From the NCBI GenBank assembly GCA_031430795.1, contig JANPCE010000057.1, forward strand, positions 22,643 through 86,642: a DNA stretch of 64,000 nt, in the 5' to 3' direction. Within the stretch, counting starts at the first letter, position 1. Every line of letters begins with the position of its first letter. Positions 12,128 through 54,244 of this stretch are shown here, piece after piece. A model generated the notes under the pieces. The model saw only the letters and a list, made by a program, of their open reading frames with translations. It was not told the origin of the DNA and searched no databases. This stretch comes from Hyphomicrobiales bacterium (GTDB lineage: Bacteria; Pseudomonadota; Alphaproteobacteria; Rhizobiales; Aestuariivirgaceae). A program made the position numbers and the translations under genes.

Positions 12128-12691
12128 TTATTCCGCTTTTGCCACCCCAACCAAGGCGGGACGAAGGCAACGTTCGCCCACGGCATAGCCCGACTGCACT
12201 TCCTGCATGACTGTACCGGGTGCGCGCTCCGACGTTGGAATTTCAAACATGGCCTGATGGAAATTCGGATTGAACTTTTCGCCAACAGTTTCCAGTTTGC
12301 GGATGTTGTGGCGCTGGAACACCGAGAGCAATTCACGCTCCGTCAGATCGATGCCATCGAGAAATTTTTTCATCACGTCGTCAACAATGTCGCGCTCTTC
12401 CGCCGGCACAGCACCCAGTGCGCGGTTCAGCGAATCCGCAACGCTCAATAAGTCACGCGCAAAATTCGTGGCGGCATAAAGCACGCCTTCGGCTTTTTCG
12501 CGCTCAAGCCGCTTCCTGGTGTTTTCCGATTCCGCCGCATAGCGCAGAAGCCGATCCTTCGCCGCGGCAACTTCTTCCTTCAACGCGAAGATTTCCGCAT
12601 CGCGCGGATCAATCTCAGCGCCCGCATTCTGCAAAATCTCGTCCGCCGCAGCTTCAAGCTCTGCGTTGTCCTGTTCAGGTGTATCGCTCAT
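12128..12691 (-). CDS. grpE: Nucleotide exchange factor GrpE.
   Basis: 187 aa with an acidic N-terminus, a long coiled helix and a C-terminal beta domain (FHQAMFEIP...GTVMQEVQSGY). Located downstream of hrcA. Confidence 0.93.
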   Translation of the reverse strand: MSDTPEQDNAELEAAADEILQNAGAEIDPRDAEIFALKEEVAAAKDRLLRYAAESENTRKRLEREKAEGVLYAATNFARDLLSVADSLNRALGAVPAEERDIVDDVMKKFLDGIDLTERELLSVFQRHNIRKLETVGEKFNPNFHQAMFEIPTSERAPGTVMQEVQSGYAVGERCLRPALVGVAKAE

Positions 12692-13838: not shown

Positions 13839-13883
13839 CAAGGTTATTTATGGTAAGAGCGCGCAAAATCAAAGGATCATCAG

Positions 13884-14600
13884 ATGACACGACCCTCTGG
13901 CCGCAAGGTCAACGAATTGCGCGCCGTTTCTTTCACCCGCGGATTTACCAAACACGCGGAAGGGTCATGCCTCGTCAAATTCGGCGAAACCCATGTTCTG
14001 GTCACCGCGTCTCTCGATGAAAAAGTTCCGCCGTGGATGAAGGGCAAGGGCAAAGGCTGGGTCACCGCCGAATATGGCATGCTGCCCCGCGCCACCCACG
14101 AACGTACGCGCCGCGAAGCCACCGCCGGCAAACAATCCGGCCGCACCCAGGAAATCCAGCGTCTGATTGGCCGCTCCATGCGCGCTGTCGTTGACCTTGA
14201 ATTGCTGGGCGAACGGCAAATCACATTGGATTGCGATGTGCTGCAAGCCGATGGCGGAACGCGCACCGCGTCCATCACCGGCGCATGGGTTGCACTTTAC
14301 GATTGCCTGAAGGGCATGGAAAAGCGCGGGCTTTTCACCAAGTGGCCGCTGAAAGACCATGTCGCGGCAATTTCCTGCGGCGTTGTAGATGGCGTTGCGG
14401 TCGCTGACCTGGATTATCCCGAAGACTCGTCCGCAGGCACAGATGCAAACTTTGTGATGACAGGTTCCGGTGGCATTGTTGAAATTCAGGGTACCGCCGA
14501 AGGTGAACCCTTCAGCGAAGATATGCTCCGTGAACTGATGAATTTGGCAAAAAGCGGGATTGCCGATCTCGTCGCATTGCAAAAGGCAACGGTGGCCTGA
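13884..14600 (+). CDS. rph: Ribonuclease PH.
   Basis: 238 aa with [18 protein letters not shown] and [15 protein letters not shown]. Confidence 0.97.
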
Positions 14601-15217
14601 TGCGTTCGCTGAAAGGTCAGAAAATCCTCATCGCCACCCACAACAAGGGCAAGCTCGAGGAGTTCCGCGAAATTTTCGCACCCCACGGCGTGGACGTGAC
14701 CAGTGCCGGAGAAATGAACTTGGGCGAACCTGAAGAAACCGAAGACAGTTTCATCGGCAATGCGAGGATCAAGGCGAAAGCCGCGGTGGAAGCCACAGGC
14801 CTCATCACCATCGCTGATGACTCTGGCCTCTGTGTTGATGCCCTGGGTGGCGCACCCGGCGTCTACACCGCCGATTGGGCCGGACCATCACGTGACTGGA
14901 TGCAGGCCATGCGACTGGTCGAGGAGAAGCTTCAAGCCAAAGGTGCTGTGACGCCTGACCAACGCACGGCATCCTTCAACTGCACCCTTCTCGTGCTTTG
15001 GCCGGACGGCGAAGAACGCATCTACGTCGGCAAGGCCCCGGGCCATCTGTCATGGCCACCACGGGGCGCTTTCGGCCATGGCTATGATCCGATTTTTGTG
15101 CCGGAGTGGCAATCCAAAACTTTTTCAGAACTGAGCCACGAAGATAAAAACAAAATCTCCCATCGCGGAAGAGCGCTGGAACTGCTGATGAAGGATTTGT
15201 TTTCTCCCTTGCGCTGA
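14600..15217 (+). CDS. rdgB: Non-canonical purine NTP pyrophosphatase (RdgB/HAM1).
   Basis: IATHNKGKLEEF, ETEDSFIGNARIKA and GHGYDPIF...ISHRG motifs. TGATG overlap with rph. Confidence 0.93.
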   Translation: MRSLKGQKILIATHNKGKLEEFREIFAPHGVDVTSAGEMNLGEPEETEDSFIGNARIKAKAAVEATGLITIADDSGLCVDALGGAPGVYTADWAGPSRDWMQAMRLVEEKLQAKGAVTPDQRTASFNCTLLVLWPDGEERIYVGKAPGHLSWPPRGAFGHGYDPIFVPEWQSKTFSELSHEDKNKISHRGRALELLMKDLFSPLR

Positions 15218-15219
15218 AA

Positions 15220-15317
15220 GCGTGAGGGAGTGGCGCGAAGCGCCGAGGGAGTATGTCGGCCTGGCTCGGTGCACGCTGACACACTCCCTCCCCGCCTTCT
15301 GCGGTACTCCCTCACGC
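15220..15317. repeat. Nested GC-rich palindromic element between the convergent rdgB and kinase genes.
   Basis: The outer arms GCGTGAGGGAGT (15220-15231) and ACTCCCTCACGC (15306-15317) are a perfect match. The inner arms are GAGGGAGT (15245-15252) and ACTCCCTC (15283-15290). Confidence 0.75.
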
Positions 15318-15338
15318 CTTCGGCGCACGGGAGAAAAA

Positions 15339-16328
15339 TTACAGCAACCCCTGCTCTCTCGCGCAAACCGCCAAATTCACTTCCGGCCTTGGACCAATAT
15401 GCGAAATCACTTCTGCCGCCGCGAGGCTTCCCAGCCTTGCACAATGGGCCAATGGTTTTCCAGCGGTGTAGCCAAACAAAAATCCAGACGCATAAAGATC
15501 GCCGGCACCTGTCACATCAATCACCTGTTTCACGGGATGTGCTGGAACCTCAATCGTGTCCTGACCCTTCACAATCACGCTGCCTTTTTCAGACCGTGTC
15601 ACCACTGCGATTGCACAGTCTTTTCGGATCGCATCAATGGCGCCTGAAAAATTCTGTGTCTTGTAAAGCGACTTGATTTCACTTTCATTGGCAAACACAA
15701 TGTTGATGCTGCTTTTGATCAGCGACAGAAAATCTTCGCGGTGGCGTTCCACACAAAAACTGTCTGACAGGGTGATGGAGGTCAATTTGCCGGCACCTTG
15801 CGAAATCTTCGCCGCTTCACGAAACGCGGCTTTGGCGGCGGGCTTGTCATAGAGATAGCCTTCCATGTAGGTGACATCCGCCGCTGATACAATTTCAGCG
15901 TCAATGTCCCTCTCGTTCAAATCCACGCAGGCCCCGAGATATGTGTTCATGGTGCGCTCGCCATCCGGTGTCACCAAAATGAAGGAGCGCGCGGTTGCTG
16001 GCCCTTCTGTTGCGGCGGGCGTGTCAAACGTCACGCCAATGGCGCGCATGTCGTGGCGGTAGATGCCGCCAAGCTGGTCTGCCCGCACTTTGCCGATGTA
16101 AGCGGCCTTGCCGCCAAAGCTGCCGATGCCTGCCGCTGTGTTGCCAGCCGAGCCGCCAGAGGTTTCAGTCGCGGATCCCATCACAGAATAAAGCTGTTCG
16201 GCACGCTCCTCGTCGATCAGATTCATCGAGCCCTTGACCAATCTTTCCCTGATGACAAAGGCTTCATCAACTTTGGCAATAACATCGACGATGGCGTTGC
16301 CGATGGTGAGGACGTGGTGGTGGGACAT
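15339..16328 (-). CDS. PfkB-family kinase, adenosine kinase-like.
   Basis: N-terminal LTIGNAIVDV and GGSAGNTA, and C-terminal DVTGAGDLYASGFL (PfkB signature 2). The start was moved to the ATG at 16328 because the track extension translates a repeat element. Confidence 0.85.
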   Translation of the reverse strand: MSHHHVLTIGNAIVDVIAKVDEAFVIRERLVKGSMNLIDEERAEQLYSVMGSATETSGGSAGNTAAGIGSFGGKAAYIGKVRADQLGGIYRHDMRAIGVTFDTPAATEGPATARSFILVTPDGERTMNTYLGACVDLNERDIDAEIVSAADVTYMEGYLYDKPAAKAAFREAAKISQGAGKLTSITLSDSFCVERHREDFLSLIKSSINIVFANESEIKSLYKTQNFSGAIDAIRKDCAIAVVTRSEKGSVIVKGQDTIEVPAHPVKQVIDVTGAGDLYASGFLFGYTAGKPLAHCARLGSLAAAEVISHIGPRPEVNLAVCAREQGLL

Positions 16329-16355
16329 GCTGAAATTCCTTGTTGCGGGGCAGGG

Positions 16356-16531
16356 CAATCGCTTGAAGCCAAGGGACCTCTCCCCCGCTTCGCGGACCCT
16401 CTCCGAAGCGGAGAGGGACTTCTTGCAGCGACCTCCCATATTACTGTTCAGGGCGCACGCACCACGGGTCCCTCCCTCCTGGGGAGGGTACGGCGAAGCC
16501 GGGGGAGAGGTCCCTTGGCTTCAAGCGATCG
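16356..16531. repeat. MITE-like nested-palindrome element, copy 1 (31-bp terminal inverted repeats).
   Basis: The terminal repeats are CAATCGCTTGAAGCCAAGGGACCTCTCCCCC and GGGGGAGAGGTCCCTTGGCTTCAAGCGATcG. There are internal hairpins (CCCTCTCCgaagcGGAGAGGG). The element is flanked by imperfect 18-bp direct repeats at 16338-16355 and 16532-16549. Confidence 0.85.
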
Positions 16532-16599
16532 CCTTGGTTGCGGGGCTGGCTAGCGGAGAACCCTTGCTGAAACAAGCCTGACGCATTACGTCTGCACGC

Positions 16600-17259
16600 A
16601 TGATCAAAGCTGCCTACAAGGCGTTGGGCGATATCACCGCGCCGGACTTCCGTTCCATCCTGTTCAAGGCCATTGGCCTTGCGCTGGTGTTGTTCGTCGC
16701 ACTTTTTGCTGGCGTGCAGTCCGTGTTCTGGTTTCTTACGTTTTTTCCCTATCCGTGGCTGGAAACGCTTGCCGCCATCGGTGCGGGGCTTGGACTGCTG
16801 GTTGCGTTCTTCTTCCTGATGGCACCGGTGACAGCGATTTTCGCCGGCCTCTACATTGACGAGGTGGCAGATAAAGTGGAGGCAAAGCACTATGCGCTGC
16901 ACCCCAAGGGCACCGCACTTCCCATGGTCAAATCATTGCTGGTCTCCGTTCAGTTTGGTTTACTGGTGCTGTTCATCAACATCCTGGCGCTGCCGCTGGT
17001 GTTCACGGGTGTTGGTGCCATCATTCTGATCGTCATCAACGCCTATTTGCTGTCGCGGGAATATTTTGAAATGGCGGCGATGCGCCACATGAGTGTGGAC
17101 GATGCAAAAGCTTTTCGGCAGGACAACGCTGCTTCGGTTTTTGTGGCAGGTCTGCTTCCGGCGTTTATGGCGGTCGTGCCAATTGTGAATCTCACCGTGC
17201 CTATTTTCGCAACAGCCTACTTCGTGCATCTGTTCAAGGCGCTGAAGTCTTCGGGCTGA
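16600..17259 (+). CDS. EI24/CysZ-family inner-membrane protein.
   Basis: 219 aa, about four TM segments, with an N-terminus (MIKAAYKALGDITAPDFRSILFKAIG) typical of this family in alphaproteobacteria as I remember it. Confidence 0.5.
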   Translation: MIKAAYKALGDITAPDFRSILFKAIGLALVLFVALFAGVQSVFWFLTFFPYPWLETLAAIGAGLGLLVAFFFLMAPVTAIFAGLYIDEVADKVEAKHYALHPKGTALPMVKSLLVSVQFGLLVLFINILALPLVFTGVGAIILIVINAYLLSREYFEMAAMRHMSVDDAKAFRQDNAASVFVAGLLPAFMAVVPIVNLTVPIFATAYFVHLFKALKSSG

Positions 17260-24121: not shown

Positions 24122-25057
24122 TTGTCACGCCATCTCCATACGCGCAACGACCAATCAACTCTTGAGCGGCTCAAACGGCTGGTGTCTTCGCGCGGCGGGC
24201 TGGCAAAGGCGGCGGCTGAACTTTCGGAAGAAGCATTCGTCCGGGCCATGCTGCGAAAACCCTTGCGCCGTGCGGTCGCCACCTTGCGCGGACAGCAGCA
24301 ACCAGAGACCTGGCTTTTCGTGGTGGGTTGCTACAATTCAGGCACGACGATCTTGCGCAACATGATTGCAGCTCATCCCGAGATTGCCAGCATGCCGCGC
24401 GAAGGTGTGCGATTTGCGCGTCAACTTTCAGACCTGCAAGAGGGCGGCCACCACATGCATTGGGCCGAGAACTGGAAGGAGCTTGCCACCCCTGCCAATG
24501 GTGCTGCGGATGCACACGAAGCCATGCTTGACTGGAGTCCTTTCTGGCAGCGCGGTGCCAAGGTTCATGTCGAAAAATCCGTGGCTCATACAGCGCGCAT
24601 CCCTTGGCTGGCGGCGCATTTTCCCAATGCGCGTTTCATCGGCATTCACCGCAATGGGTATTGCGTGTCGGAAGGTTTGCGGCGGCGTTCGCGCCCGCCG
24701 GATTGGCTGAAGGCCAAGACCGGGCTTGACCACTATCCGCTCGAGATGTCGGCGCAACAATGGCTTGATGCCAACACCGCCATGTTGACCGGGCTTGAAG
24801 CCGTGCAACACAAAATGATTGTGCCCTTCCAACACATGGTGACAAACCCTGCTGAGGTTTTGGCCGAGGCTTTTGCCTTTGCAGGAGCAGCACCCCTGCC
24901 GCTGTCTTTTGACGGTGCCCACATCGCCATCGGTGGCAAGCCCCACGAAATCCGCAACCCTGATCCTGCCAGCCTGAAGCGGCTTTCAAATGATGACAAG
25001 GCGCTGCTGCGATCACAGCTGGGGGGCATGATGGCGCGGCTGGGTTATAATGTTTAA
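24122..25057 (+). CDS. Sulfotransferase (Sulfotransfer_3-like).
   Basis: PAPS 5-prime-phosphosulfate loop VVGCYNSGTTIL and a later VEKSVAH..ARFIGIHRNG. The start is uncertain (TTG 24122 or ATG 24248). Confidence 0.65.
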   Translation: MSRHLHTRNDQSTLERLKRLVSSRGGLAKAAAELSEEAFVRAMLRKPLRRAVATLRGQQQPETWLFVVGCYNSGTTILRNMIAAHPEIASMPREGVRFARQLSDLQEGGHHMHWAENWKELATPANGAADAHEAMLDWSPFWQRGAKVHVEKSVAHTARIPWLAAHFPNARFIGIHRNGYCVSEGLRRRSRPPDWLKAKTGLDHYPLEMSAQQWLDANTAMLTGLEAVQHKMIVPFQHMVTNPAEVLAEAFAFAGAAPLPLSFDGAHIAIGGKPHEIRNPDPASLKRLSNDDKALLRSQLGGMMARLGYNV

Positions 25058-30010: not shown

Positions 30011-30157
30011 TCAAATATCCAAGCATGCCCGGGGATTTGGACATGCCACAACATAGCGGCTCTCTGGCGCATGGCGCACCAACATCGCCAACATCTGCCT
30101 GGCACCACCAGACTTGGCACCACAGGCGTTGACGAGAACGCGGGGTTCAAGCACCAT
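30011..30157 (-). pseudogene. Probable N-terminal remnant (about 48 codons) of a GT-B glycosyltransferase.
   Basis: MVLEPRVLVNACGAKSGGARQMLAMLVRHAPE resembles GT4 N-termini (compare IIFDAINIKRGGGVTVAERIL of the GT at 27563-28678). The frame then stops, and it lies at the junction between GC-rich and AT-rich sequence. Confidence 0.35.
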
Positions 30158-32063
30158 CTGTCTGGAAAAAACACTGAAATGGTGTGTATGAACTGACGGA
30201 CTTTTCAAAATGCCTGCCGCCGCCCACGGCTGTTTCGTCGGCCACAGTTTCAAACGTCATCTGCTCGAAGAAATCAGCGACAAGTCCGTTGCGGGCGGTG
30301 GGAACATAGAGTCCTTTGACTACGTCTGCACCACCCTCACCAGCCAGCTGCATGACCTGGTTCATGAGGAACTGTTCGACCCCGCGCCGCAACACCCGGC
30401 AAGACATCAACCATGTGTCTATCGACCAAGCATGCGCTTCAGTCTTGTCAATGACCACAACTGATATCATGCCATGGTCTGCAAACCTGTCTTTCATACG
30501 CACTTGCATGCAGATGAAATTGGAATCTGCAGAAAGCCGCTCAACATCAACTTCGCTGTAGCGGCGGGTTGTGAGGTTAAACTGGTTTGACTTTGAAATG
30601 AGCTGTGCGATTCGCGCCTTGCCCGTTGGGTCAAAGGGTTTCACGCTGATCCGCATGTCGAGAGACTGCAAGTATTCATCATAGTTGCCGATTGATTCAA
30701 GCGTGGCGGCAGCACGGGCGCGGCCAGTGTATGCGTCGCTGCGGCCAAGGTCCTCGGCTGTCAGCGGCAGGTATTCAAAATATCCCGCATCCAAAAGCGA
30801 GGCCGGGAAATATGAAACGTCTTCCGGCATCTCCGGCACATGAACGAAAGGCAGTTCTGCGCGGACGCGTTCACGTTCAGCCGGATTGTCATCAACAAAA
30901 ACCAGAGACTCGAGGCCAAGGTCGAGACTTTGGGCGATGCGTCGGATGTTGCTGGCCTTGTCGTCGAAATTGGCAATGAAGACGGCGACATGTTGTTCGC
31001 GCAACAACATTTCCGCATGGGACTTGAAAGGCTCACGGGCAATTGCTTCCACATTCTTGGAGCACACCGTGAGCACGATGCCCCGGTCGCGCCAGTCCAG
31101 CGTCAGACGCTGGAATGCCGTGAAGGCTTCACCTTCGGCGCTGCCTTGCCCAAGCCGCAAACCCTCCGGTCCGTCATCCGCCACCACACCACCCCAAATG
31201 GTGTTGTCGAGGTCCAATACAAGGGCGCGACCGGAACGGCCTGCAAGGGCTGCCAGTTTTGCGGCGAGACTGTCAGCGACCTGTGGGCCGTATTCCAGGG
31301 CATAGGGCGCTTTTGCCAGATGCATACGCACGGGGTCACAAAAGGCGAAAGTACCGATACGTTCAGCCAGTAAACCAAAATCCCAGACGAGCCACTGTCT
31401 GGCCTGGCCTTGTGCATGAATGAACGCGTTGAGTTGCGACACCAGCCTTGTGGCAGACCCCGCCATGCCACCGTCGCTGGATGACAACGCACTGGCTGGA
31501 TCGCGCGCAAGTGTTGCGACGATGACTGGAACGTCAATCCGCTTGCTGATGCCGTCAACGATGCGGGTGAGGTGGGCCGCAGCCCGGGACATGCGGGCGT
31601 CTTCCGCCGCATTGTCCAACAAGGGTACGCGCTCCGCGAAAGCGGAAGCGTCGAGCATCACCAGCACAGCGTCGAACGGGCCTTCCGGCCCCGCCCACTG
31701 ATCGTCCATGGCGAGTGCTGTCGCCGCATCAAAACCTGTTGTCGTCATTTGCAGGACAAGGCCGCGGGCGGGACCTGCGGCAGCAAGGTCGGCAGCCAGA
31801 AAATCAAGGGTCTTGTTGCCCACTGCCAAAACCCGCATCGGCCTGAAACCCGGCAGGTGGGCATGTGACGCAAAGGCAAGTTTGCCAAGTCTCTGCATGC
31901 GGGATTGATGTTGCATCGGCACGCGCATGGCAGCAATCCGCCGCAGTTCTTTAGAGAGGTCAACGCGCTCTTGGTCCACGCCGCGCAATTCGCCCGTGAG
32001 CCTTTTGAGCCGCACGTCAAAATCTGCGGCGGCGGGTTCGCGCCAGTCTCCGGGCTTAAACAT
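30147..32063 (-). CDS. FkbH-like HAD-IIIC phosphatase/acyl-loading enzyme with an N-terminal extension of about 270 aa.
   Basis: HAD motif I LVLDLDNTIWGG, the central NQFNLTTRR block and the catalytic cysteine context WLMSCRVLRRG. Confidence 0.8.
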   Translation of the reverse strand: MFKPGDWREPAAADFDVRLKRLTGELRGVDQERVDLSKELRRIAAMRVPMQHQSRMQRLGKLAFASHAHLPGFRPMRVLAVGNKTLDFLAADLAAAGPARGLVLQMTTTGFDAATALAMDDQWAGPEGPFDAVLVMLDASAFAERVPLLDNAAEDARMSRAAAHLTRIVDGISKRIDVPVIVATLARDPASALSSSDGGMAGSATRLVSQLNAFIHAQGQARQWLVWDFGLLAERIGTFAFCDPVRMHLAKAPYALEYGPQVADSLAAKLAALAGRSGRALVLDLDNTIWGGVVADDGPEGLRLGQGSAEGEAFTAFQRLTLDWRDRGIVLTVCSKNVEAIAREPFKSHAEMLLREQHVAVFIANFDDKASNIRRIAQSLDLGLESLVFVDDNPAERERVRAELPFVHVPEMPEDVSYFPASLLDAGYFEYLPLTAEDLGRSDAYTGRARAAATLESIGNYDEYLQSLDMRISVKPFDPTGKARIAQLISKSNQFNLTTRRYSEVDVERLSADSNFICMQVRMKDRFADHGMISVVVIDKTEAHAWSIDTWLMSCRVLRRGVEQFLMNQVMQLAGEGGADVVKGLYVPTARNGLVADFFEQMTFETVADETAVGGGRHFEKSVSSYTPFQCFFQTDGA

Positions 32064-32080
32064 GTCTTTGGCCTGTCAAT

Positions 32081-32503
32081 TCAAACTTGCCCGTCTGCGG
32101 CGAAATCCCCGGCTGGCAGCAAGCTGTGGGTTTTGCCGGTTGCGATCAGACGGTCTGCCGTGCGCACTTCGAATTTCGCCTCGATGCTGCCCATGGCCTC
32201 GGCCACGTGAACGACATGGAGTTTCAACACAGCCGCTTCACCCACATAAAGCGCGCGGCGGTAGTCGATCTGCCAGGACAGGGACACACCCCTGTCGCCC
32301 GGGATTTTGCCGCCCAGAACGTGGGACAGTTGAGCCAAGATGATGCCGCCATAAACGATGGCGCGTTCAAAGCCACGGGCGCGGGCAAATGCGTCATCCA
32401 CATGAACGGCGCTGCGGTCGTTGGACAGTGACTGGAACATAGCCATCATGTCATCAGTGACGGTGAAGCCGTGTTCGGCCATATCTCCCGGCTTGAGCGC
32501 CAT
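32081..32503 (-). CDS. MaoC-like (R)-hydratase/dehydratase, hotdog fold.
   Basis: 140 aa with the DRSAVHVD..FA...GFERAIVYG pattern typical of MaoC dehydratase domains. Confidence 0.7.
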   Translation of the reverse strand: MALKPGDMAEHGFTVTDDMMAMFQSLSNDRSAVHVDDAFARARGFERAIVYGGIILAQLSHVLGGKIPGDRGVSLSWQIDYRRALYVGEAAVLKLHVVHVAEAMGSIEAKFEVRTADRLIATGKTHSLLPAGDFAADGQV

Positions 32504-32506
32504 GGA

Positions 32507-32758
32507 TCAGGCCGGAAGCTTGCCGCCTATCAACGTCACCAACTCACCGACATGGGCAAGACTGGTGATTTCGGCGGCGGTGAACTTGATCTTGAAGCGC
32601 TGCTCGAGGCGGACCATGAGCTGAACATTTGCAAGACTGTCCCATTGTTCGATGTCTTCGGCCGTCGTTGTCATGCCAACCTTGCCGTCATACTCGTCGA
32701 ACAGGTCTGTCATCAGGGCCTGGATTTCATCGAGGATTTTCTGCTGGTGGGCGCTCAT
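32507..32758 (-). CDS. Acyl/peptidyl carrier protein.
   Basis: 83 aa with the phosphopantetheine attachment context IEQWDSLANVQLM (DSL). ATGA overlap with the upstream methyltransferase. Confidence 0.85.
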   Translation of the reverse strand: MSAHQQKILDEIQALMTDLFDEYDGKVGMTTTAEDIEQWDSLANVQLMVRLEQRFKIKFTAAEITSLAHVGELVTLIGGKLPA

Positions 32759-33669
32759 GTGGTTTTCCTTGCGATGACTGCTGTTGAAATGGCCATGGCC
32801 CGTTTGCGGGCGGATTCGAGTGTTGTGCCACTGGTGGGCGCAAAAAGCGTGTCCACAATCTCAAAGCCCGCTGTCCGCACAAGATCAACGATTTCCTCAG
32901 GCGCCCTGAACAGGGCGAGATGGTCGGGCGCTGGCGAGTTTACGGGCGCATTGATGAAGGCCAGTCCATCCTTGGCGAGAAGGCGCATGATGGCATCCAG
33001 GGCCTCGGCCGGCTTTTCAAGATGTTCCAAAACTTCAGAGAAGACGATGGAATCAAACATGCCCGAAGGTGCCGAGAACATGTTGACGAGTTCGAGATGA
33101 ACAGTCTTTTTTGGTTTCAAAACACCAAGCGCATGCTGTGTCATCGCGATTGAAGCCGGGCTGACATCCCAGCCTGTGGCGGTGGCGCAGCCCGGCGCAT
33201 CGGCGGCGAGGCCGAGGAACAGGCCGTGTCCCGGGCCGATCTCGAGATGCCGGAAGCCGGACTTCAGTTTGCCCAGATAAATGCTCTGGTAGTAACCCAT
33301 GACTTCGGTGTGGTTGCGCCACCACAGTTGCGACATCAGCAAGCCGTTCATGTAGCGGGTCATGAAGACGCGGTCCGCGTAGACTTCACGTTCGGCCTGC
33401 TCAAACGTCGAGAGCCGATATTCGCCGGTGCGCCGGAACGCGATTTCTTCATCGACAACCATTTCGCAGAGCCAACGATAATCCGCGAGATGCGTGTCCA
33501 TGCCATCGCCCACGAGCATTTCGACAGTGTGGGCAAGTTTCTCGGCGAACGCGAAGCCTTCTGGCGTTGTCGCCTCAAAACGTTTGCGCAGGTATTTTTC
33601 GTGGGACGGAAAAACCGCACTCTGGCGCGTGGCGAGGGATTGCAGTTTGGGGAAATCATTTGGAATCAT
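32755..33669 (-). CDS. Class I SAM-dependent methyltransferase.
   Basis: Motif I HLEIGPGHGLF and post-I/II FSEVLEHLEKP. The start was moved to the ATG at 33669, which overlaps the upstream stop (ATGA). Confidence 0.8.
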   Translation of the reverse strand: MIPNDFPKLQSLATRQSAVFPSHEKYLRKRFEATTPEGFAFAEKLAHTVEMLVGDGMDTHLADYRWLCEMVVDEEIAFRRTGEYRLSTFEQAEREVYADRVFMTRYMNGLLMSQLWWRNHTEVMGYYQSIYLGKLKSGFRHLEIGPGHGLFLGLAADAPGCATATGWDVSPASIAMTQHALGVLKPKKTVHLELVNMFSAPSGMFDSIVFSEVLEHLEKPAEALDAIMRLLAKDGLAFINAPVNSPAPDHLALFRAPEEIVDLVRTAGFEIVDTLFAPTSGTTLESARKRAMAISTAVIARKTT

Positions 33670-34853
33670 GGGGAATTGTTTTCCGTTAACTCTATGTGCC
33701 TGACCCGTTCCCGCAAGGACTGGGCATAGGCGGAAAAATTCTCTCGGGTGAGCGTGTTGCTCCCCCTCGATATTGCGTCCAGCATCCACCGGATCTGGAC
33801 GGCGTCCACCATATGGCCCGGATCGCGGTAATTTGCCAGCACTTCTGTTATTTGCCGTTCATTGTCGAATGCATGGACTCGTACACCCGGCACCGCAGCC
33901 AAATCCTCCACCGCACATTCGCGCAACCTGATCGAGAGTTCCAGCACGTCGTTGTTCCGGTATTTCAACGCCCAGACCGGGAAAGTCAGTTGTGAGACCG
34001 GGTAGAATACAAGTGCATAGGGTGGGACTAGGATGTCAACCTTGATGTTTCTTTGTGAGAGTGATTTTGCAAACGGAAGCAGGGACTGACGAAGTGCGGT
34101 AAACTCCTCGCATGCGATTGCTGCCGGTGCGGCAGGAATTCTGTCAAACTTGGCAACTGCCGCTTTCACGAAGTTCAACTTTTGGGCATCGTCGGGAAGG
34201 CGTCGCACCGCTGCAAGCGTTTTTTCAATCTCAGTTATTGTCCGCTGGCGCGGGCCCGGCAGTCCAAGAGCGAGTCGCGCTGACTGACTGATCGCAGTCC
34301 ACTCAAAGTCCTTGCCGATATTGTACCAAGGGGTGTCATAATACGAGAAGGGGAAGGTCACGCTTTCCTGTTCGGCAGGACTGAAGAAAGTGACAGAGTC
34401 GAGACCAACGATGACTCTTTGCAGCCTGGGCATTGCAACAACTTTGTTGAAGACGAGATCAAGATCCCGGAAGCGTGGCGCGTTGTAGCTGATGTTGAAG
34501 GGCGCGCCGCTTTCCGGAAAAGCCGCTTTGAGAAGCGCGGGATCAATGGGGTTGACGGTAGAACCGCCAATGAGGAGCAGATCAACATCACTTGCAGCCA
34601 CCACGTTCAACAGGCTGGCTGACGAATTCGCATCACGCGCGAAGGAAGCAGGTGTGGGCCGTGCGCCCCAGGGCCTGAGGTCATAGGGATCAACCAGCGC
34701 CACCAACAAAAACGCGCAAAGGCCCAGAACGAAAGGCAGCCCCGCCAAAAGCAGATAGGGCGCTCTGGCGCGCAGCAAGTTTTGATTGTTGGCTTTGCCC
34801 ATCCGATGCCAAAGCCCCATCGCGAACAACAATTGTGAAAAGTGCTGTGTCAT
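33666..34853 (-). CDS. Single-pass exported protein with SGNH/DltD-like catalytic blocks; candidate partner of the MBOAT.
   Basis: One N-terminal TM (LLLAGLPFVLGLCAFLLVALV), a LLLIGGSTV block (block I-like Ser) and a C-terminal YRDPGHM block (DxxH block V-like). Its start shares a nucleotide with the MBOAT stop (TGATG). Confidence 0.5.
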   Translation of the reverse strand: MTQHFSQLLFAMGLWHRMGKANNQNLLRARAPYLLLAGLPFVLGLCAFLLVALVDPYDLRPWGARPTPASFARDANSSASLLNVVAASDVDLLLIGGSTVNPIDPALLKAAFPESGAPFNISYNAPRFRDLDLVFNKVVAMPRLQRVIVGLDSVTFFSPAEQESVTFPFSYYDTPWYNIGKDFEWTAISQSARLALGLPGPRQRTITEIEKTLAAVRRLPDDAQKLNFVKAAVAKFDRIPAAPAAIACEEFTALRQSLLPFAKSLSQRNIKVDILVPPYALVFYPVSQLTFPVWALKYRNNDVLELSIRLRECAVEDLAAVPGVRVHAFDNERQITEVLANYRDPGHMVDAVQIRWMLDAISRGSNTLTRENFSAYAQSLRERVRHIELTENNSP

Positions 34854-36418
34854 CAGAACCCACCATAAAGATAGGGGGATTTGCGGTCGATCATGACCAC
34901 GGCCGTAACCATCAAGGCACAGCATATCACGCCCCACAGCAGGACAGGTCGCCAGGTCAGGCGCATGATGCCGGGGGTGATGGATTCATTGTCAAAGGTC
35001 ATGATGGCAGGCCGATAGCGGCGCAACAGTTCCACTGAATTCGGCAGCAGCCAGACCACAAAGATTGAAAGCAGCAGCAGCGGCAGGGTACTGCCCGGCA
35101 TTACAATGTCAGTGGGCTGGCCAACAACGAGGCTTCCGACCAATCGACCGAAAGCGTCGACGCTGGACGAACGAAACAGGGCAAATGTCAGGATCAGTGG
35201 TGCCACGGTGATGGCCTGGCCGATGATTTGCCTTTGCAGGTTGGACGTGCGCTTGCGAAAATTTTTCCATGTCTTCGTTGCCCGGATTTCGGTTTCCGCA
35301 ATGTACCATACTCCATGGATGAGGCCGAAAAGCATGAAAGTTGCGGTGGCTCCGTGCCAGATCGCAATGACTTGAAAATTGACGAGCAATGGCAGCCAGA
35401 TCGACAGGATTTTTTCCACGCGCCGGGGCATGTTGTGGGTTAAAGCAAGCCGTGTGCCCCAGACCGCAATTGGCGTGTAAAGAAAGCGCGTGATCACCCG
35501 CGTCAGTGTCATGTGCCAACGACGGTAAAAATCTGCAATGCCAGTGGCGCGCAATGGCGAATCAAAATTCTGCGGCAGGCGCAGTCCGAACAAGCGCCCG
35601 ATGCCCAACGCCGCATCAGAGTAGCCGGAGAAGTCAAAGTACAGCTGGAAGTAATACGCCAGCATGGCCGTCGCGGCAGCGCCGCGCGAAACCGTGTTGC
35701 CTGCCGCGATGACATCAAAAACCCGGTCAGAGAACAGGGCAAGCTTGTCGGCAATGACAATTTTCTTGAACAGGCCCATGGCCAGCAGCATCAAGCCTAT
35801 TTCAATGTCGATACGGCGGATGCTTCCGAAGTTTCTGCGCAGCAACTGTGGTGCCATTTCCCTGAGGTAGGAAATCGGACCGATGATGAGTTGTGGAAAC
35901 AACAGGATGAATGCGGCGTAGGCCAGTCCGCCTTTCACTGTGGGGGTTTGCCCCTCTCCCGCCCTCAGTACTTGAACAGTCTCAGGCTTGTGGCCATAGG
36001 CGTCGGCGAGAAATACTGCCTGGTGGAATGTGTAGAAAGATATGCCAACAGGAATGCCGTATGGCAGCAACGTCGCCGCCGCACCGGGTTGAAAGAGTGC
36101 CCAGACCTGGTTCACGTATTTGAACAGGATCAACAGGCCAAAATTGTAGAGCATGCCGAGCACGAAGACGGTGAGACGTAGGCGCTTGCGCTGGTGCGCA
36201 TGGGGGTGTGACAGGTAGATACCGATTGCAAGGTTCACCAGGACGCTTGCAATCAACAGTCCCGCTGAAAACCAACCTTCCCACGCATAAAACATAAGAG
36301 ATGCTATGGTGATTGCGGCGTAGCCGCCAACCGGCCCCCATGAACGTGCAAGGCTCCAGTAAAACAGCAGCGAAAAAGGCAGAAAAATGAACAGGAATAA
36401 CGGATCGCTGAATGTCAT
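34853..36418 (-). CDS. MBOAT-family membrane O-acyltransferase (AlgI/DltB-like).
   Basis: 521 aa, multi-pass, with the N-terminus MTFSDPLFLFIFLP, the conserved FYRRWHMTL and the IAIWHGA histidine motifs. Confidence 0.88.
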   Translation of the reverse strand: MTFSDPLFLFIFLPFSLLFYWSLARSWGPVGGYAAITIASLMFYAWEGWFSAGLLIASVLVNLAIGIYLSHPHAHQRKRLRLTVFVLGMLYNFGLLILFKYVNQVWALFQPGAAATLLPYGIPVGISFYTFHQAVFLADAYGHKPETVQVLRAGEGQTPTVKGGLAYAAFILLFPQLIIGPISYLREMAPQLLRRNFGSIRRIDIEIGLMLLAMGLFKKIVIADKLALFSDRVFDVIAAGNTVSRGAAATAMLAYYFQLYFDFSGYSDAALGIGRLFGLRLPQNFDSPLRATGIADFYRRWHMTLTRVITRFLYTPIAVWGTRLALTHNMPRRVEKILSIWLPLLVNFQVIAIWHGATATFMLFGLIHGVWYIAETEIRATKTWKNFRKRTSNLQRQIIGQAITVAPLILTFALFRSSSVDAFGRLVGSLVVGQPTDIVMPGSTLPLLLLSIFVVWLLPNSVELLRRYRPAIMTFDNESITPGIMRLTWRPVLLWGVICCALMVTAVVMIDRKSPYLYGGF

Positions 36419-38524: not shown

Positions 38525-40051
38525 TCAGTTTTCCTTTTCCTGTCTTCCCATGCGCAAGAGTGCGCGCGCAAAGGGAATGCCCATTGCCACGGCAAAAATA
38601 GCGGCTGAAAGCAGCAATTCGATGGCGGAGTGCCATGGCAGATAGCGGTGCACAAGCCATGATACGGCAGTTGCGGCGATGGCAAGAAGTGCCGGTCTGG
38701 CGAAGGGGCGCAGCAACTCGGAAAGGGGAACTTTCAAGGTGCGTGAGGTTTTCAAAGGCAGGGCAACGGCATGGGACACGATCATCAACGCTGAAAATGC
38801 AATCGCCACGCCAAGGTATGAAATGTCTGCTGGAAGCCACTTGGACAACGCATAGACGGCAAGTGGGTTGAACAAGGATCCAATCAATAACAACGGCCCG
38901 TAAGCACGCACCTCACCGATTCCGGACAGCACCTTCATCCAACCCTCTGACAGGCCACGCGCGACCATGCCGGGAATCATGACGAGAAACAGCATGACCA
39001 TTTGGGACGCGGTGGCACTTCCCGCAACAAACCCAGGCCCCAACCATAACGCCATCACCGCAGAAGCGTTGACGGCGAGAAAGCCGGCCGCTGACAATAT
39101 CACCAGCGCCTGCATGGTGCCGGTTGTGGCGATGAATTTTCGCGTTTTGGGCGTGACGACCCGTTCGACAGCAACTTGCCTCGCGATTGCAGCATCCATG
39201 CCCTGCACGAGGCCGATGGTGAGCTGGCGCATATAGTTCAAAAGCTGCGATGCAATGGCAAACGCGAAAGCCCCCGCCAAGCCAAAATACCAACTCACAA
39301 ACAGGAGGTCGAAGCGCATGTAAAAATTGAAGGCAAGCACCACAAAACCGTTCCAGCCCACGGTGGCCGCCATTTTCCAGACCTCGGGCAAGGAAACCAT
39401 GGTGGGCCGGGGCCATTTTTGCCGCGAAATTCTCACGCCATGCCAGGCCCAGGCCATGTTGACGGCGATGATTGCCGCGAAGGAAAGCCAGGCAAAGATT
39501 TCGACGATGGCACCTGCACCACTTGCCAAAGACACTGCGGCAAGCGCCGCGCACAGTTCGCCGAGCCGTTCGAGTGTCTGGTAGATGTTGTGCAAGCCGT
39601 TGTTGCCTGTGACAGGCAGAAGATTGGTGGCAGGCGCTACAAGTACCGCCACAAATGTGGAGGCCATGCGCGTCAGCACCAGTGTCACCGCAGCAGCAAA
39701 GAGGTCAGCAGGAATTGAGAAGCGGTCAAGGAAAAACAGAACAACAGACAGAACTGCAACTGAAAACAGGGCGGCCACAAAACTCAGGAAAAAAGCCGAA
39801 GAGAAGACTTCTTCGAACTCGACTTCCGATTTTCCATGCAGGGCCAGGCCCAGTTCAGGCACCATGGTTCCACGCACCATTTCTTTGAGCATGCCGGCCA
39901 TGCCGGTCGACGTTGCGACAAGGGCGACGACTGTGAAAACATCCTGGGAAATGCCCGTGAATATCCGCACGAGCCACAGCCCCATGACCACCGTGATGGC
40001 CATGCGGGCGTAGTTTGAGAGAATGCGGATTTGTTCAGCGGTGATAGCCAC
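38525..40051 (-). CDS. Wzx-type oligosaccharide flippase (MOP superfamily).
   Basis: 508 aa with 12 or more hydrophobic segments. Its position is next to the polymerase-like gene. GTG start. Confidence 0.65.
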   Translation of the reverse strand: MAITAEQIRILSNYARMAITVVMGLWLVRIFTGISQDVFTVVALVATSTGMAGMLKEMVRGTMVPELGLALHGKSEVEFEEVFSSAFFLSFVAALFSVAVLSVVLFFLDRFSIPADLFAAAVTLVLTRMASTFVAVLVAPATNLLPVTGNNGLHNIYQTLERLGELCAALAAVSLASGAGAIVEIFAWLSFAAIIAVNMAWAWHGVRISRQKWPRPTMVSLPEVWKMAATVGWNGFVVLAFNFYMRFDLLFVSWYFGLAGAFAFAIASQLLNYMRQLTIGLVQGMDAAIARQVAVERVVTPKTRKFIATTGTMQALVILSAAGFLAVNASAVMALWLGPGFVAGSATASQMVMLFLVMIPGMVARGLSEGWMKVLSGIGEVRAYGPLLLIGSLFNPLAVYALSKWLPADISYLGVAIAFSALMIVSHAVALPLKTSRTLKVPLSELLRPFARPALLAIAATAVSWLVHRYLPWHSAIELLLSAAIFAVAMGIPFARALLRMGRQEKEN

Positions 40052-45251: not shown

Positions 45252-46079
45252 ATGCTGATTCAACAACGTGACGCCGCCTGGTGGTTCAAACTCAATGGTG
45301 CCCTGCGCTATGCCATCGCCCAAGGTGCTGCCAACGCATTTGGCACGCCCGTGGTCGTCACCGAATATCCCAAATCAGGCGGGACTTGGTTCAGCCAGAT
45401 GTTTGCGGCAGCCCTCGACGTGCCCTACCCGCGCAACCGCCTACCGCACCTGCGACGGCAGATCATCCATGGCTGTTATCTCAAATCTAGCCCTGGGGCA
45501 GACACGATGGTGGTATGGCGCGATGGGCGGGATATCATGGTGTCATACTATTATCACCTGATCTTTGAGAAACCGATCACCAGCGCCCGCTACAGCCGCT
45601 CCATCATCGCCAAGCTCGACATCAAGGACCAGCGCGACATCCAGCGCTATCTTCCGCGCTTTATTGAATGGTGTTACGCCGGAGGGTATCCATACTATTC
45701 ATGGACGCATTTTGTGCAGACTTGGCTTGCGCGTCAGGACGTACACCAAACCAGCTATGAAAAGGTCACGGAAAACCCCCTGCGTGAATTGCAGGCCGCA
45801 TTTGCGGCCTTTGGCTGGCCCTGTCCACCGGAGGAGAAGCTTAAGACGATCATCGCGGATTTCTCGTTTGAAGCGCAATCGGACAGGCCGCGTGGTGTCG
45901 AAGATGTGACAAGCTTTGTGCGCAAGGGCATCATCGGTGACTGGCAAAACCACTTCACGGGCGAGGCCTGCGAGGTGTTTGACCGCTTGGGCGGGGCTGA
46001 ACTCATCACACTTGGCTATGAAAAGGACCGGGGCTGGATCGAACGGCAAAAGAAATCGCTTGTTTCCCACGAAAGTTGA
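45252..46079 (+). CDS. Sulfotransferase (Sulfotransfer_1-like).
   Basis: The 5-prime-PSB loop EYPKSGGTWF (compare the canonical PKSGTTW) and a later VVWRDGRD. Confidence 0.7.
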   Translation: MLIQQRDAAWWFKLNGALRYAIAQGAANAFGTPVVVTEYPKSGGTWFSQMFAAALDVPYPRNRLPHLRRQIIHGCYLKSSPGADTMVVWRDGRDIMVSYYYHLIFEKPITSARYSRSIIAKLDIKDQRDIQRYLPRFIEWCYAGGYPYYSWTHFVQTWLARQDVHQTSYEKVTENPLRELQAAFAAFGWPCPPEEKLKTIIADFSFEAQSDRPRGVEDVTSFVRKGIIGDWQNHFTGEACEVFDRLGGAELITLGYEKDRGWIERQKKSLVSHES

Positions 46080-50293: not shown

Positions 50294-51478
50294 ATGCGGA
50301 TCGTCATTTCCTACCGCTATTTCTGGCCTGACACGTCGCCTTACGCCATCATGCTCAAGGACATTGCAGCGTGGCTGGCGGAAGCGGGACATGATGTGAC
50401 AGTGTTGACAGCGCAACCCGCCTACAAGCCAATGGCTGGTGTGCCGAAACAGCCCGCAAGGGAGCAGATGCGCGGCTACACCGTGCGCCGTCTCCCGCTT
50501 TTGCCTGAAGGCGGGCGCACCATCTTCAAAGCCGTGAATGCGGCGCTGTTCGTTGTCATGTCTTCCTTGATCGTGCTGTTTGGACGCAAGCCTGACATTG
50601 TCTGGACGGCGACAATGCCACCCGTGCTGCAGGCCTTTGCGCTGCGTCTGGTGGGTGCCTTGCGGGGTGCGAAGTTCATCTATCATATGCAAGATATCCA
50701 CCCTGAGATCGCTGTATATTCCAACATCTCAAAGCCTGGGCTGTTGACCCGCCTGCTCACCTCACTTGACAGCTACACGCTCCGGCGCACGGCGCGCGCC
50801 ATGGTGTTGAGCACAGACATGCGGGACGCCGTCATTGCACGGGGTGTGCCGGAACACGTGCCGCAGGTTGTGCGCAATTTTTCGCTTGGCGTGAATTCAA
50901 AAATCAAACCCGCGACCGCGCCAAAACCCGGCGAAGCCGTGCGGTTTGTGTTTGCGGGCAATATTGGCCGTTTTCAGAACCTCGAGCCGTTGGTTGATGC
51001 GTTTGGACGGTTGAGCGATCCCATGCTGCAGCTCGATCTGGTTGGCGATGGTCGCGTGAAGGCGCTGCTCCAGAAACAGGTGCTGGAGAATGGTTATGAC
51101 AACATCCACTTTCATGACCACATGAGTGCTGATGATGCCTATGTTTTCATGTGCGGATGCCACGTCGGCCTGATTTCCCTGAGCCGCGAGCTTTACCGCT
51201 ACGCCTTTCCCTCCAAGCTGCTGACCTATATGGCAGCCAACCTTCCGATGTTTGCCATGGTGGAGGAGCACAGTGCCTTGGCACGCTTGTTGACGGACCG
51301 GAACATCGGCACTGCCGTTTCCTGGGATCGCAATGCCGATGAACTTTCCGCTGCAATCCGCGACATCGCAGCCAAGGCCAGAAGCGGGGTGATGCGCCCC
51401 GCTGAATGCTCCGACTATTATCTTCCTGAGGTGGCCAAGGCGACCTATCTCAAAGTGGTGGATGAGCTTGCGACATGA
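50294..51478 (+). CDS. GT4 glycosyltransferase (WbuB-like).
   Basis: MRIVISYRYFWPDTSPY N-terminus. It follows a CapE/2-epimerase cassette, as WbuB-type L-hexosaminyl transferases usually do. Confidence 0.75.
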   Translation: MRIVISYRYFWPDTSPYAIMLKDIAAWLAEAGHDVTVLTAQPAYKPMAGVPKQPAREQMRGYTVRRLPLLPEGGRTIFKAVNAALFVVMSSLIVLFGRKPDIVWTATMPPVLQAFALRLVGALRGAKFIYHMQDIHPEIAVYSNISKPGLLTRLLTSLDSYTLRRTARAMVLSTDMRDAVIARGVPEHVPQVVRNFSLGVNSKIKPATAPKPGEAVRFVFAGNIGRFQNLEPLVDAFGRLSDPMLQLDLVGDGRVKALLQKQVLENGYDNIHFHDHMSADDAYVFMCGCHVGLISLSRELYRYAFPSKLLTYMAANLPMFAMVEEHSALARLLTDRNIGTAVSWDRNADELSAAIRDIAAKARSGVMRPAECSDYYLPEVAKATYLKVVDELAT

Positions 51479-52338
51479 CCATGCGTCCCCTCATCATCAT
51501 CGGTGCAGGCCGCTCTGGGACCAACATCCTGCGGGACACACTGACGCAGATTCCGGGCTACGCCACATGGGATTGCGATGAGATCAATCTCATGTGGCGG
51601 CACGGCAATATCGGCATGCCGCACGACATGTTCAGTGCAAGGGAAGCGCGGCCCGGGGTTCAGCGCTACATGCAAAACGCCTTCGCCTCGTTCCAGCGCA
51701 AGTCCGGCGCCACAACCGTGGTCGAGAAAACCTGCGCCAACAGCCTGCGCGTGCCTTTCATCGACGCCATTTTCCCTGAAGCGCGCTATCTCTACATCGT
51801 GCGTGATGGCCGCGATGTGGCGTTGTCTGCGGCGCAGCGCTGGACGGCTTCGGTTGAAGCCAGATATCTCCTGAAGAAGTTGCGCCATGTCCCAATAACA
51901 GATGTGCCACATTATGGATTTCGTTTTCTTGCCAACAGGCTTCATCAGCGACGTTCGGTGGAAAAGCGACAGAAGGCCTGGGGCCCAGTGTTTCCCGGGA
52001 TGGCAGAGATGGTGAAGTCGAAGCCTCTGCTTGACGTTTGTGCGGCACAATGGGCGGCCTGCGTTGCGGCTACAGACGCGGCCCTTGCGGGCATGTCACA
52101 AAACAAAAAACTGAAGGTCACATATGAGGTACTGGTGTCTGATGCGGCGGGGACGATGCAAGCCATTTGCGAATGGTTGGGGCCAGGTGTTCCTGAGCAG
52201 CTGCCTTCGGCGGCGTTGAATGCCATTCATCAGGGATCACTCAATGGATGGAAGCGGAAACTCCAACAGTTTTCGCCTGAATCGCTGTCCACCATGTCGG
52301 CGGCGCTGAAAAGCCATGGCTATGAAGCTACCACTTGA
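51475..52338 (+). CDS. Sulfotransferase (Sulfotransfer_3-like).
   Basis: IIIGAGRSGTNILRD PAPS loop and VEKTCANS..ARYLYIVRDGRD, parallel to the protein at 24122-25057. Confidence 0.7.
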   Translation: MTMRPLIIIGAGRSGTNILRDTLTQIPGYATWDCDEINLMWRHGNIGMPHDMFSAREARPGVQRYMQNAFASFQRKSGATTVVEKTCANSLRVPFIDAIFPEARYLYIVRDGRDVALSAAQRWTASVEARYLLKKLRHVPITDVPHYGFRFLANRLHQRRSVEKRQKAWGPVFPGMAEMVKSKPLLDVCAAQWAACVAATDAALAGMSQNKKLKVTYEVLVSDAAGTMQAICEWLGPGVPEQLPSAALNAIHQGSLNGWKRKLQQFSPESLSTMSAALKSHGYEATT

Positions 52339-54079: not shown

Positions 54080-54244
54080 GACGACTGTTTGCAATGAATC
54101 CGCAACATCTCAAGATCAATGCAAAGCGAGAATGTTTCCTTGCGTTGGGTTTGTTGCATTGCCTTTTCGGTTACCCTATCATGGACCAGCGAGGGGTCGC
54201 GATTTCAGGGACCGGAAGGTGTTGAATCTTTCGGCGCGTCAATA

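Follow-up and report, generated by a model that had tools for sequence, protein, structure and literature searches.

A candidate carrier-protein-dependent MBOAT/SGNH acylation cassette with an FkbH-type loader in a glycan locus of a Hyphomicrobiales bacterium

The window analysed here is a stretch of 64,000 nucleotides (nt) from a Hyphomicrobiales bacterium of the Aestuariivirgaceae (assembly GCA_031430795.1, contig JANPCE010000057.1, positions 22,643 to 86,642 of the forward strand). Between positions 36418 and 30147, its minus strand carries six packed genes that code, in this order, for a membrane-bound O-acyltransferase (MBOAT), an exported SGNH-like protein that we call P2, a methyltransferase dependent on S-adenosylmethionine (SAM), an acyl carrier protein (ACP), a MaoC hotdog protein and an FkbH-like loader. 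We propose, with a probability of roughly 0.55, that this cassette encodes a carrier-protein-dependent MBOAT/SGNH O-acylation pathway, which would decorate the glycan encoded at this locus with glyceryl or with a methylated or dehydrated form of it. Across genomes, gene content and sequence conservation make the co-function of the four core genes (MBOAT, P2, ACP and FkbH) a well-supported prediction, and they support indirectly that the ACP would donate the acyl group to the MBOAT. On the other hand, we infer the identity of the acyl group and that of the acceptor. The features of the cassette are as follows (aa, amino acids).

34853 to 36418, minus strand: MBOAT membrane acyltransferase, 521 aa, about nine hydrophobic segments (PF03062).
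35351 to 35521, minus strand: the two MBOAT histidines, in RWH (H302) and WHG (H355), located by translation and DltB alignment.
35411 to 35476, minus strand: TPIAVWGTRLALTHNMPRRVEK, MBOAT residues 315-336 with R323, equivalent in the DltB alignment to helix HC and the start of transmembrane helix 8 (TMH8) of DltB.
34856 to 34873, minus strand: C-terminal hexapeptide YLYGGF of the MBOAT, a fused acyl-shuttle motif of the FxYxxF type with Tyr518, read from the translation.
33666 to 34853, minus strand: P2, 395 aa, exported SGNH-like protein with an N-terminal membrane helix at residues 36-54 (conserved blocks, Foldseek).
32755 to 33669, minus strand: class-I SAM-dependent methyltransferase, 304 aa, soluble (Methyltransf_23, E=2.5e-16).
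32507 to 32758, minus strand: ACP, 83 aa, phosphopantetheine site Ser41 (DSL), net charge about -6 (PP-binding).
32081 to 32503, minus strand: MaoC-type hotdog hydratase/dehydratase, 140 aa (PF01575, 31.7 bits, cutoff 27).
30147 to 32063, minus strand: FkbH-like loader, 638 aa, with an N-terminal domain, a HAD-IIIC phosphatase domain and a C-terminal domain (TIGR01686, TIGR01681).

The six genes overlap or lie at most 17 nt apart. The MBOAT and P2 genes share a TGATG overlap, ATGA overlaps join P2 to the methyltransferase and the methyltransferase to the ACP, and gaps of 3 nt and 17 nt separate ACP from MaoC and MaoC from FkbH, respectively. An earlier sequence-only reading had listed these open reading frames (ORFs) and junctions. 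All of them were confirmed in the window, and independent gene calls on a near-identical public contig (L084) give the six products at the same lengths (521, 395, 304, 83, 140 and 638 aa). The motifs named in that reading (RWHM, WHG, GGS, DPGH, DSL, DLDNT and SCR) were verified by translation, and its family assignments hold in Pfam and NCBIfam profile searches for five of the six proteins. P2 has no family match in either collection.

The core of the cassette is conserved far beyond the window. A compact unit of MBOAT (522 aa), P2 (409 aa), ACP (83 aa) and FkbH (628 aa), devoid of methyltransferase and MaoC genes, is found on the pSymB replicon of Sinorhizobium meliloti, with identities to the window proteins of 42%, 25%, 45% and 46%, respectively. 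No other acyltransferase lies within this four-gene operon. A scan with an FkbH alignment, covering one genome per species, returned at least 597 confirmed stretches, and the best 80 loci were analysed. They span Alpha- and Betaproteobacteria, Acidobacteriota, Gemmatimonadota, Chloroflexota, Nitrospinota, Cyanobacteria and Myxococcota. Linkage was counted in the 55 of these best 80 loci that have at least 6 kb on both sides. A survey of the co-occurrence of FkbH, ACP and MBOAT genes had been suggested along with the original proposal, and its outcome agrees with it: an ACP gene lies within 3 kb of FkbH in 54 of the 55 loci (98%), and an MBOAT gene within 6 kb in 43 (78%). The partner of the MBOAT is a P2-family protein in 25/55 loci. 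A second subtype carries an AlgX-like SGNH partner (PF16822), as in the ACP-FkbH-AlgX-like-MBOAT arrangement of Bradyrhizobium.

Several details of the S. meliloti cassette deserve a record of their own. It adjoins an uptake operon for autoinducer-2 (AI-2), and capsule export genes are found about 9 kb away, with mobile elements in between. In strain ml46 (pSymB, positions 13573-14802 of locus L003), the P2 orthologue is annotated as a 'TonB-dependent receptor'; this label is almost certainly wrong, as the sequence shows SGNH blocks and a single membrane helix. In strain Rm1021 (pSymB, NC_003078.1, about 14973-17035 of locus L002), the FkbH-like gene lacks one nucleotide that ml46 has, around nt 1083 of the coding sequence (AAGGCC to AA-GCC), and this splits it into two ORFs. 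Either the gene is a pseudogene in this strain or the deletion is an old sequencing error; if the frameshift is real, Rm1021 would be without the modification.

The MBOAT of the window matches PF03062 with 54.8 bits (cutoff 27, E=1e-14) and the DltB structures 8jem and 6bug with E=1e-18. Its H355 is invariant in the family alignment A6 and aligns with His336, the active-site residue of DltB (PMC11035591), and H302 of the RWH motif is conserved in at least 90% of the same alignment. Against the DltB equivalog model TIGR04091, the protein reaches 121 bits, with a cutoff of 375, and the match covers residues 165-416 only. At the C-terminal hexapeptide, Y518 and F521 are invariant in A6 and the first position is Y instead of F; an ending of the form [FYIVL]xYxx[FY] was found in 128 of 135 related MBOATs. 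PatA has been reported to auto-acetylate the tyrosine of its own C-terminal FxYxxF motif and then to transfer this acetyl to its SGNH partner PatB; the Dlt pathway has the motif on a separate microprotein, DltX (2025; PMC12148441). No separate DltX microprotein is present in the cassette, whose genes leave no space for a small ORF between them. Hence, the fusion of YLYGGF to the MBOAT and the presence of an ACP in the operon point to a PatA/AlgI-style shuttle combined with a Dlt-style carrier protein.

A feature that bears on ACP donation is the putative docking segment of the MBOAT. DltC docks on the horizontal helix HC of DltB, at Met302, Val305, Ile306 and Met309, and forms salt bridges to Lys312 and Arg317 (PMC11035591). 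In a pairwise alignment, with numbering taken from chain offsets, the DltB docking residues M302-K312 and R317 correspond to residues 315-336 of the window MBOAT. Nearly all the columns that best separate MBOATs linked to FkbH from unlinked ones fall in this very segment, between the two histidines. Unlinked MBOATs carry there a short loop, Y-[IL]-P-L-G-G-N-R-K-G. The window MBOAT is without the Y-[IL]-P-L-G-G-[NS] loop and has TPIAVWGTRLALTH in its place; linked MBOATs in general, like DltB, are also without it and have a longer segment, usually with an arginine. R323 is common to 82% of the linked and 11% of the unlinked MBOATs, and GG[NS] occurs in none of 67 FkbH-linked versus 17 of 19 unlinked proteins.

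A scan of metagenome contigs centred on the MBOAT yielded 80 relatives as an unbiased sample. Most of them are paired with a P2-family protein. An ACP was found on the locus in 0/57 cases with GG[NS] and in 11/19 cases without it (Fisher p=1e-8); of the eight motif-less MBOATs with no ACP nearby, several have almost no flank. One of the two exceptions among the unlinked MBOATs (L089, JAAUYH010156047.1, positions 5527-12197) lacks GG[NS] and is encoded with an 817-aa P2-like protein and an ACP; a 762-aa AMP-binding enzyme is encoded there in convergent orientation. Judged by its predicted products, this locus is a Dlt-like carrier-fed MBOAT set with an adenylating loader, and thus the signature would track carrier linkage and not FkbH as such. 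Moreover, in a neighbour-joining tree (no support values) the clade of the window MBOAT is FkbH-linked throughout. This clade includes S. meliloti, Aurantiacibacter, Sphingomonas, a metagenome-assembled genome of the Caulobacteraceae and one metagenome contig. Other linked MBOATs are placed in further clades, and the unlinked ones cluster apart. In 22 of 28 cases from the metagenome sample, an MBOAT and its nearest labelled neighbour share a label; only 23 of 2000 label shuffles reach this value.

P2 belongs to a divergent family, which we defined by iterative profile hidden Markov models on the cassette loci. An exhaustive representative search retrieved 382 P2-family proteins; word-indexed searches performed poorly, returning one protein with P2 alone and five with a 30-sequence alignment. 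In the family alignment A2, G96, S98 and H347 are invariant and N120 and D344 are at least 90% conserved. Ser98 lies within GGS, and the conserved positions, D344-x-x-H347 among them, match blocks I, III and V of SGNH proteins. An AlphaFold2 model built from a 105-sequence alignment reached a mean confidence (pLDDT) of 72.9; a 6-sequence version (pLDDT 38) was unusable. The best match of the model in the Protein Data Bank (PDB), as found by Foldseek, is DltD of Enterococcus faecium (6pfx, E=2e-3), followed by many SGNH esterases (probability about 1.0) and two more DltD entries. The fold assignment is drawn from the structural matches and the conserved SGNH blocks taken together. The single N-terminal hydrophobic helix, preceded by basic residues, indicates that the P2 domain faces outward. 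Altogether, the helix, the blocks and the top structural match to DltD support the earlier description of P2 as an exported SGNH-like protein. Two P2-family members, P0176 (784 aa) and P0185 (651 aa), have 300-450 extra C-terminal residues with no Pfam match. In addition, some cassettes carry two tandem P2 paralogues 3' of the MBOAT gene (L041, 13464-15889; also L071, L075 and L076), an arrangement that recalls, by analogy, the AlgJ/AlgX division of labour in alginate acetylation.

On the cytoplasmic side, the FkbH-like loader scores 264 bits against TIGR01686 (cutoff 147) over residues 279-605. It contains DLDNT at residues 284-288 and SCR with Cys555, and D284, D286 and C555 are invariant among 25 FkbH homologues (alignment A1). 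The protein matches PDB entry 3slr (BF1531) with E=1.7e-46 and has thousands of full-length homologues; its N-terminal domain, of about 270 residues, has no Pfam match. By analogy with characterised relatives, it would form glyceryl-S-ACP from 1,3-bisphosphoglycerate (PMC7489565). The ACP scores 24.1 bits against PP-binding (cutoff 20.8), is matched by ACP models in NCBIfam and shows a weak match to the DltC model (E=0.003). None of the six cassette genes encodes a DltA-type AMP-binding ligase, and FkbH holds that position. The proposal that FkbH replaces DltA as the loader of a carrier protein which feeds an MBOAT and an exported partner is strengthened, at the comparative level, by the conservation of the four-gene core, the SGNH blocks of P2 and the divergence of the docking segment.

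Tailoring of the ACP-bound unit is the least certain step, owing to a degenerate MaoC motif and a missing partner enzyme. Orthologues of the methyltransferase (1e-60 to 1e-103) adjoin FkbH/ACP in 17 of the 80 genome loci and form a cassette-specific group. MaoC orthologues with the motif LSGDxNPLH were found by phmmer in 8 of these 80 loci, each directly after the ACP gene, and in 7 of the 8 the MaoC gene is followed by a short-chain dehydrogenase/reductase (SDR) gene and then by FkbH. These counts come from single-sequence phmmer searches, as an iterated MaoC profile drifted into SDR proteins and its counts were discarded. This dehydratase-ketoreductase-FkbH order mirrors the loading modules of some polyketide pathways, which turn glyceryl-ACP into lactyl-ACP. 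Therefore, the product of the MaoC plus SDR loci is probably of a lactyl type. The window MaoC retains the Asp-x4-His of the hydratase motif (NDRSAVH), and no SDR of the cassette type was found anywhere in the window. The combination of MaoC and methyltransferase without SDR suggests that the cargo here is probably a dehydrated and/or methylated C3 acid, which is the weakest inference of the model. A pathway of the methoxymalonyl type was considered and rejected, since dehydrogenases of the FkbK/FkbI type are absent from the cassette. There are precedents for such cargo: O-methylation of carrier-bound glycerate has been proposed in suomilide biosynthesis (PMC13122637), and the flagellar glycan of Campylobacter jejuni carries 2,3-di-O-methylglyceroyl groups, with an FkbH-domain gene in its locus (PMC3068675, PMC7099621).

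Taken together, the pathway might operate as follows. By homology, the HAD domain of the FkbH-like enzyme would dephosphorylate 1,3-bisphosphoglycerate, and the glycerate would pass from Cys555 to the phosphopantetheine arm of the ACP. MaoC might then remove the 3-hydroxyl of the ACP-bound unit, giving an enol-pyruvoyl or pyruvoyl group, and/or the methyltransferase might methylate a hydroxyl. In the four-gene versions, such as that of S. meliloti, the cargo would be plain glyceryl, and in the MaoC plus SDR loci it would probably be lactyl. From the comparative data we predict that the acyl-ACP binds the MBOAT from the cytoplasmic side, in the stretch where DltB has its DltC-binding helix. If the biochemistry of PatA and DltB/DltX is a guide, the MBOAT histidines would move the acyl group to Tyr518 of YLYGGF at the outer face. 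From this ester, the group would be handed to Ser98 of P2 and then to a hydroxyl group on the polysaccharide that the surrounding genes produce.

This scheme shares features with several known systems. As in the Dlt pathway of Firmicutes, which D-alanylates teichoic acid, the genes for an MBOAT and a membrane-anchored SGNH-like protein have that of a small carrier protein as neighbour. The MBOAT keeps its two histidines, P2 finds its best structural match in DltD, and the MBOAT has no GG[NS] and bears a longer, arginine-containing segment at the DltC-binding site of DltB. Unlike Dlt, the cassette has an FkbH-type HAD enzyme instead of an adenylating ligase as loader, a predicted hydroxy acid instead of an amino acid as cargo, and a shuttle hexapeptide fused to the MBOAT instead of DltX. 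Its MBOAT is also longer (521 aa versus about 415 aa for DltB), and its hosts are Gram-negative (Alpha- and Betaproteobacteria, Acidobacteriota and others), with presumably a polysaccharide as acceptor. The 'Dlt-style' label given in the sequence-only reading needs a correction, as the cassette is no plain replica of Dlt: DltX is missing and the MBOAT stays under the DltB equivalog cutoff.

The long MBOAT with a fused FxYxxF motif and a separate exported SGNH-type partner is shared with PatA/PatB, AlgI/AlgJ/AlgX/AlgF, WssH/I and PatA1/B1, as are the Gram-negative hosts, the location in a polysaccharide locus and, in the second cassette subtype, the AlgX-like partner. Those systems use acyl-CoA without a carrier protein (PMC12148441), whereas the cassette has an ACP and a loader, its MBOAT is without the GG[NS] of unlinked relatives, and neither the AlgX nor the GDSL model of Pfam recognises P2. 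As in the polyketide and non-ribosomal peptide modules for methoxymalonyl-ACP, tetronates and suomilide, the FkbH-like enzyme adjoins a stand-alone ACP, and tailoring of the carrier-bound unit by an O-methyltransferase and a dehydratase is expected. However, the cassette contains no polyketide synthase, non-ribosomal peptide synthetase, FabH-like condensing enzyme or FkbK/FkbI dehydrogenases, and its unit would exit through a membrane acyltransferase to a glycan and not to a chain-building enzyme. The C. jejuni flagellar glycan offers a glycerate-derived, O-methylated acyl decoration with an FkbH-domain gene in the glycan locus, but in that case an amide bond joins the group to a CMP-sugar (pseudaminic acid) in the cytoplasm, there is no MBOAT/SGNH pair, and the cited papers establish no role for cj1302.

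The cassette is embedded in a glycan locus that extends over about 24-54 kb of the window. This locus contains genes for GT4 glycosyltransferases, a nucleotidyltransferase, three DegT aminotransferases and FnlA/B/C-like enzymes, as well as three sulfotransferases, several methyltransferases, a hexapeptide acyltransferase, a deacetylase-like protein and a weak Wzy-like protein. A glycosyltransferase/nucleotidyltransferase pair flanks the cassette on one side; on the other side lies the hexapeptide acyltransferase gene, directly adjoining the MBOAT, together with the Wzy-like gene. The glycan around the cassette had been described as a Wzx/Wzy product. The locus itself is there, the Wzy-like protein scores just under the Pfam threshold (26.1 versus 26.6 bits), and the profile searches gave no Wzx family match. 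Between a beta-helix protein and the Wzy-like gene, positions 38525-40051 encode a 508-aa protein with about ten hydrophobic segments and no family match; this multi-pass protein may be the missing flippase. The sulfotransferase genes (24122-25057, 45252-46079 and 51475-52338), together with at least four further methyltransferases in the glycan locus, suggest a polysaccharide with many decorations, possibly sulfate among them. Adjoining the glycan locus on its downstream side, positions 54119-61908 encode three consecutive large proteins with RTX calcium-binding repeats (1128, 589 and 824 aa).

A number of observations weigh against the proposed pathway. The whole interpretation draws on comparative sequence analysis and predicted structure. 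The structural match of P2 is weak (E=2e-3, TM-scores of 0.25-0.57), and both the length of the MBOAT and the shuttle motif fused to its C-terminus are reminiscent of AlgI-type enzymes; its score falls far under the DltB cutoff. The MaoC motif of the window is degenerate (SNDRSAVH versus SGDxNPLH) and its SDR partner is absent. The statistics on GG[NS] ignore shared ancestry. We presume that this motif marks the acetyl-CoA users AlgI and PatA; in our data it defines the ACP-unlinked class. FkbH was found in only 3 of the 22 metagenome MBOAT loci with 3 kb or more of flank on each side, and in 12 of the 55 well-flanked genome loci FkbH and ACP occur with no MBOAT. It follows from the latter that the loader needs no MBOAT and also serves other acyltransferases. 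Likewise, as MBOAT-P2 pairs mostly occur without FkbH or ACP, they would form a module of wider use, linked to a carrier in certain clades only, and at some glycan loci the adjacency of FkbH and MBOAT could be accidental. The MBOAT-less loci carry proteins of 330-338 aa with no Pfam match (for instance L012:8825-9838, L020:11210-12223 and L051:8849-9841), polysaccharide-deacetylase-like genes or a hexapeptide transferase, all of which may be alternative users of acyl-ACP.

Several of these points can be read as the signature of two independent systems that happen to be neighbours, in which the acyl-ACP would serve cytoplasmic N- or O-acylation of a nucleotide sugar or lipid-linked unit and MBOAT-P2 would be an ordinary acetyl-CoA-dependent O-acetyltransferase acting on the same polymer. 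The prevalence of MBOAT-P2 pairs without FkbH or ACP and the 22% of FkbH-ACP loci with candidate partners other than an MBOAT would fit this explanation. So would the three DegT aminotransferases and the adjoining hexapeptide acyltransferase of the window, and the C. jejuni precedent, where an FkbH-domain gene and an amide-linked methylated glycerate occur without any MBOAT. We nevertheless consider it unlikely, because of the minimal S. meliloti operon, in which MBOAT, P2, ACP and FkbH are the only genes and no other acyl-ACP user is present, the clade structure, with linked MBOATs in clades of their own, and the motif correlation, all linked MBOATs being without GG[NS]. Moreover, the 78% linkage holds across several phyla and with two types of SGNH partner, and in the window start/stop overlaps tie the MBOAT and P2 genes to those of the methyltransferase and ACP.

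The remaining alternatives keep the architecture of the carrier-dependent pathway and change one of its ends. The cargo might not derive from glycerate, if this branch of FkbH-like enzymes loads a different phosphorylated or activated small acid. Only residues 279-605 match the FkbH model and the extra N-terminal domain of 270 residues has no Pfam counterpart, the nearest solved relative (BF1531, 3slr) is uncharacterised, no listed homologue is named for a tested function, and we found no study of the branch in the literature. Even so, we regard this option as rather improbable: the score lies well over the FkbH cutoff, the HAD aspartates and the cysteine are invariant, the FkbH-like enzymes in the literature cited here all use 1,3-bisphosphoglycerate, and a dehydratase with a ketoreductase-type SDR, or an O-methyltransferase, fits the tailoring of a dihydroxy acid. 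The acceptor, in turn, might be another envelope molecule, such as lipopolysaccharide, a periplasmic glucan, peptidoglycan or a lipid. This agrees with the position of the S. meliloti cassette, outside any glycan-assembly cluster, and glycan genes were checked in only part of the survey loci. We hold it to be quite improbable for the window, whose cassette sits inside a glycan locus of 30 kb; characterised MBOAT/SGNH pairs are usually encoded together with the genes of their polymer.

All components of the cassette are known, and it is their combination that is new. Our literature searches on FkbH with MBOAT, polysaccharide or Sinorhizobium, on DltX, MBOAT, SGNH and carrier proteins, and on HAD-IIIC enzymes found no description of such a cassette, in line with the original remark that no machinery of this composition is known to have been described. 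It has been stated that, among bacterial MBOAT/SGNH acylation systems, only Dlt uses a carrier protein and all others use acyl-CoA (PMC12148441). If the proposed pathway is real, this statement would be wrong. Beyond the window, we see about even odds for a second, widespread class of carrier-dependent MBOAT/SGNH envelope acylation outside Firmicutes, which would place hydroxy-acyl groups (glyceryl, lactyl, methylated or dehydrated variants) onto polysaccharides. It would use FkbH-type loaders, in some loci adenylating ones, a dedicated ACP and an MBOAT subclass without GG[NS] and with a DltB-like docking helix. Proteobacteria, Acidobacteriota and other phyla would then commonly harbour carrier-fed MBOATs, which could be recognised in the sequence by the missing GG[NS] loop. 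Such a pathway would tie a glycolytic intermediate to the decoration of surface polymers and widen the range of acyl groups that can be placed outside the membrane. We know of no genes assigned to glycerate and related esters on exopolysaccharides; for gellan, an alphaproteobacterial polymer with such esters, the literature found names no glyceryl transferase. The cassette would provide the first genetic handle on the glycerate esters of these bacterial polymers. Since S. meliloti, a genetically tractable symbiont, has the system, the model would be directly testable there.

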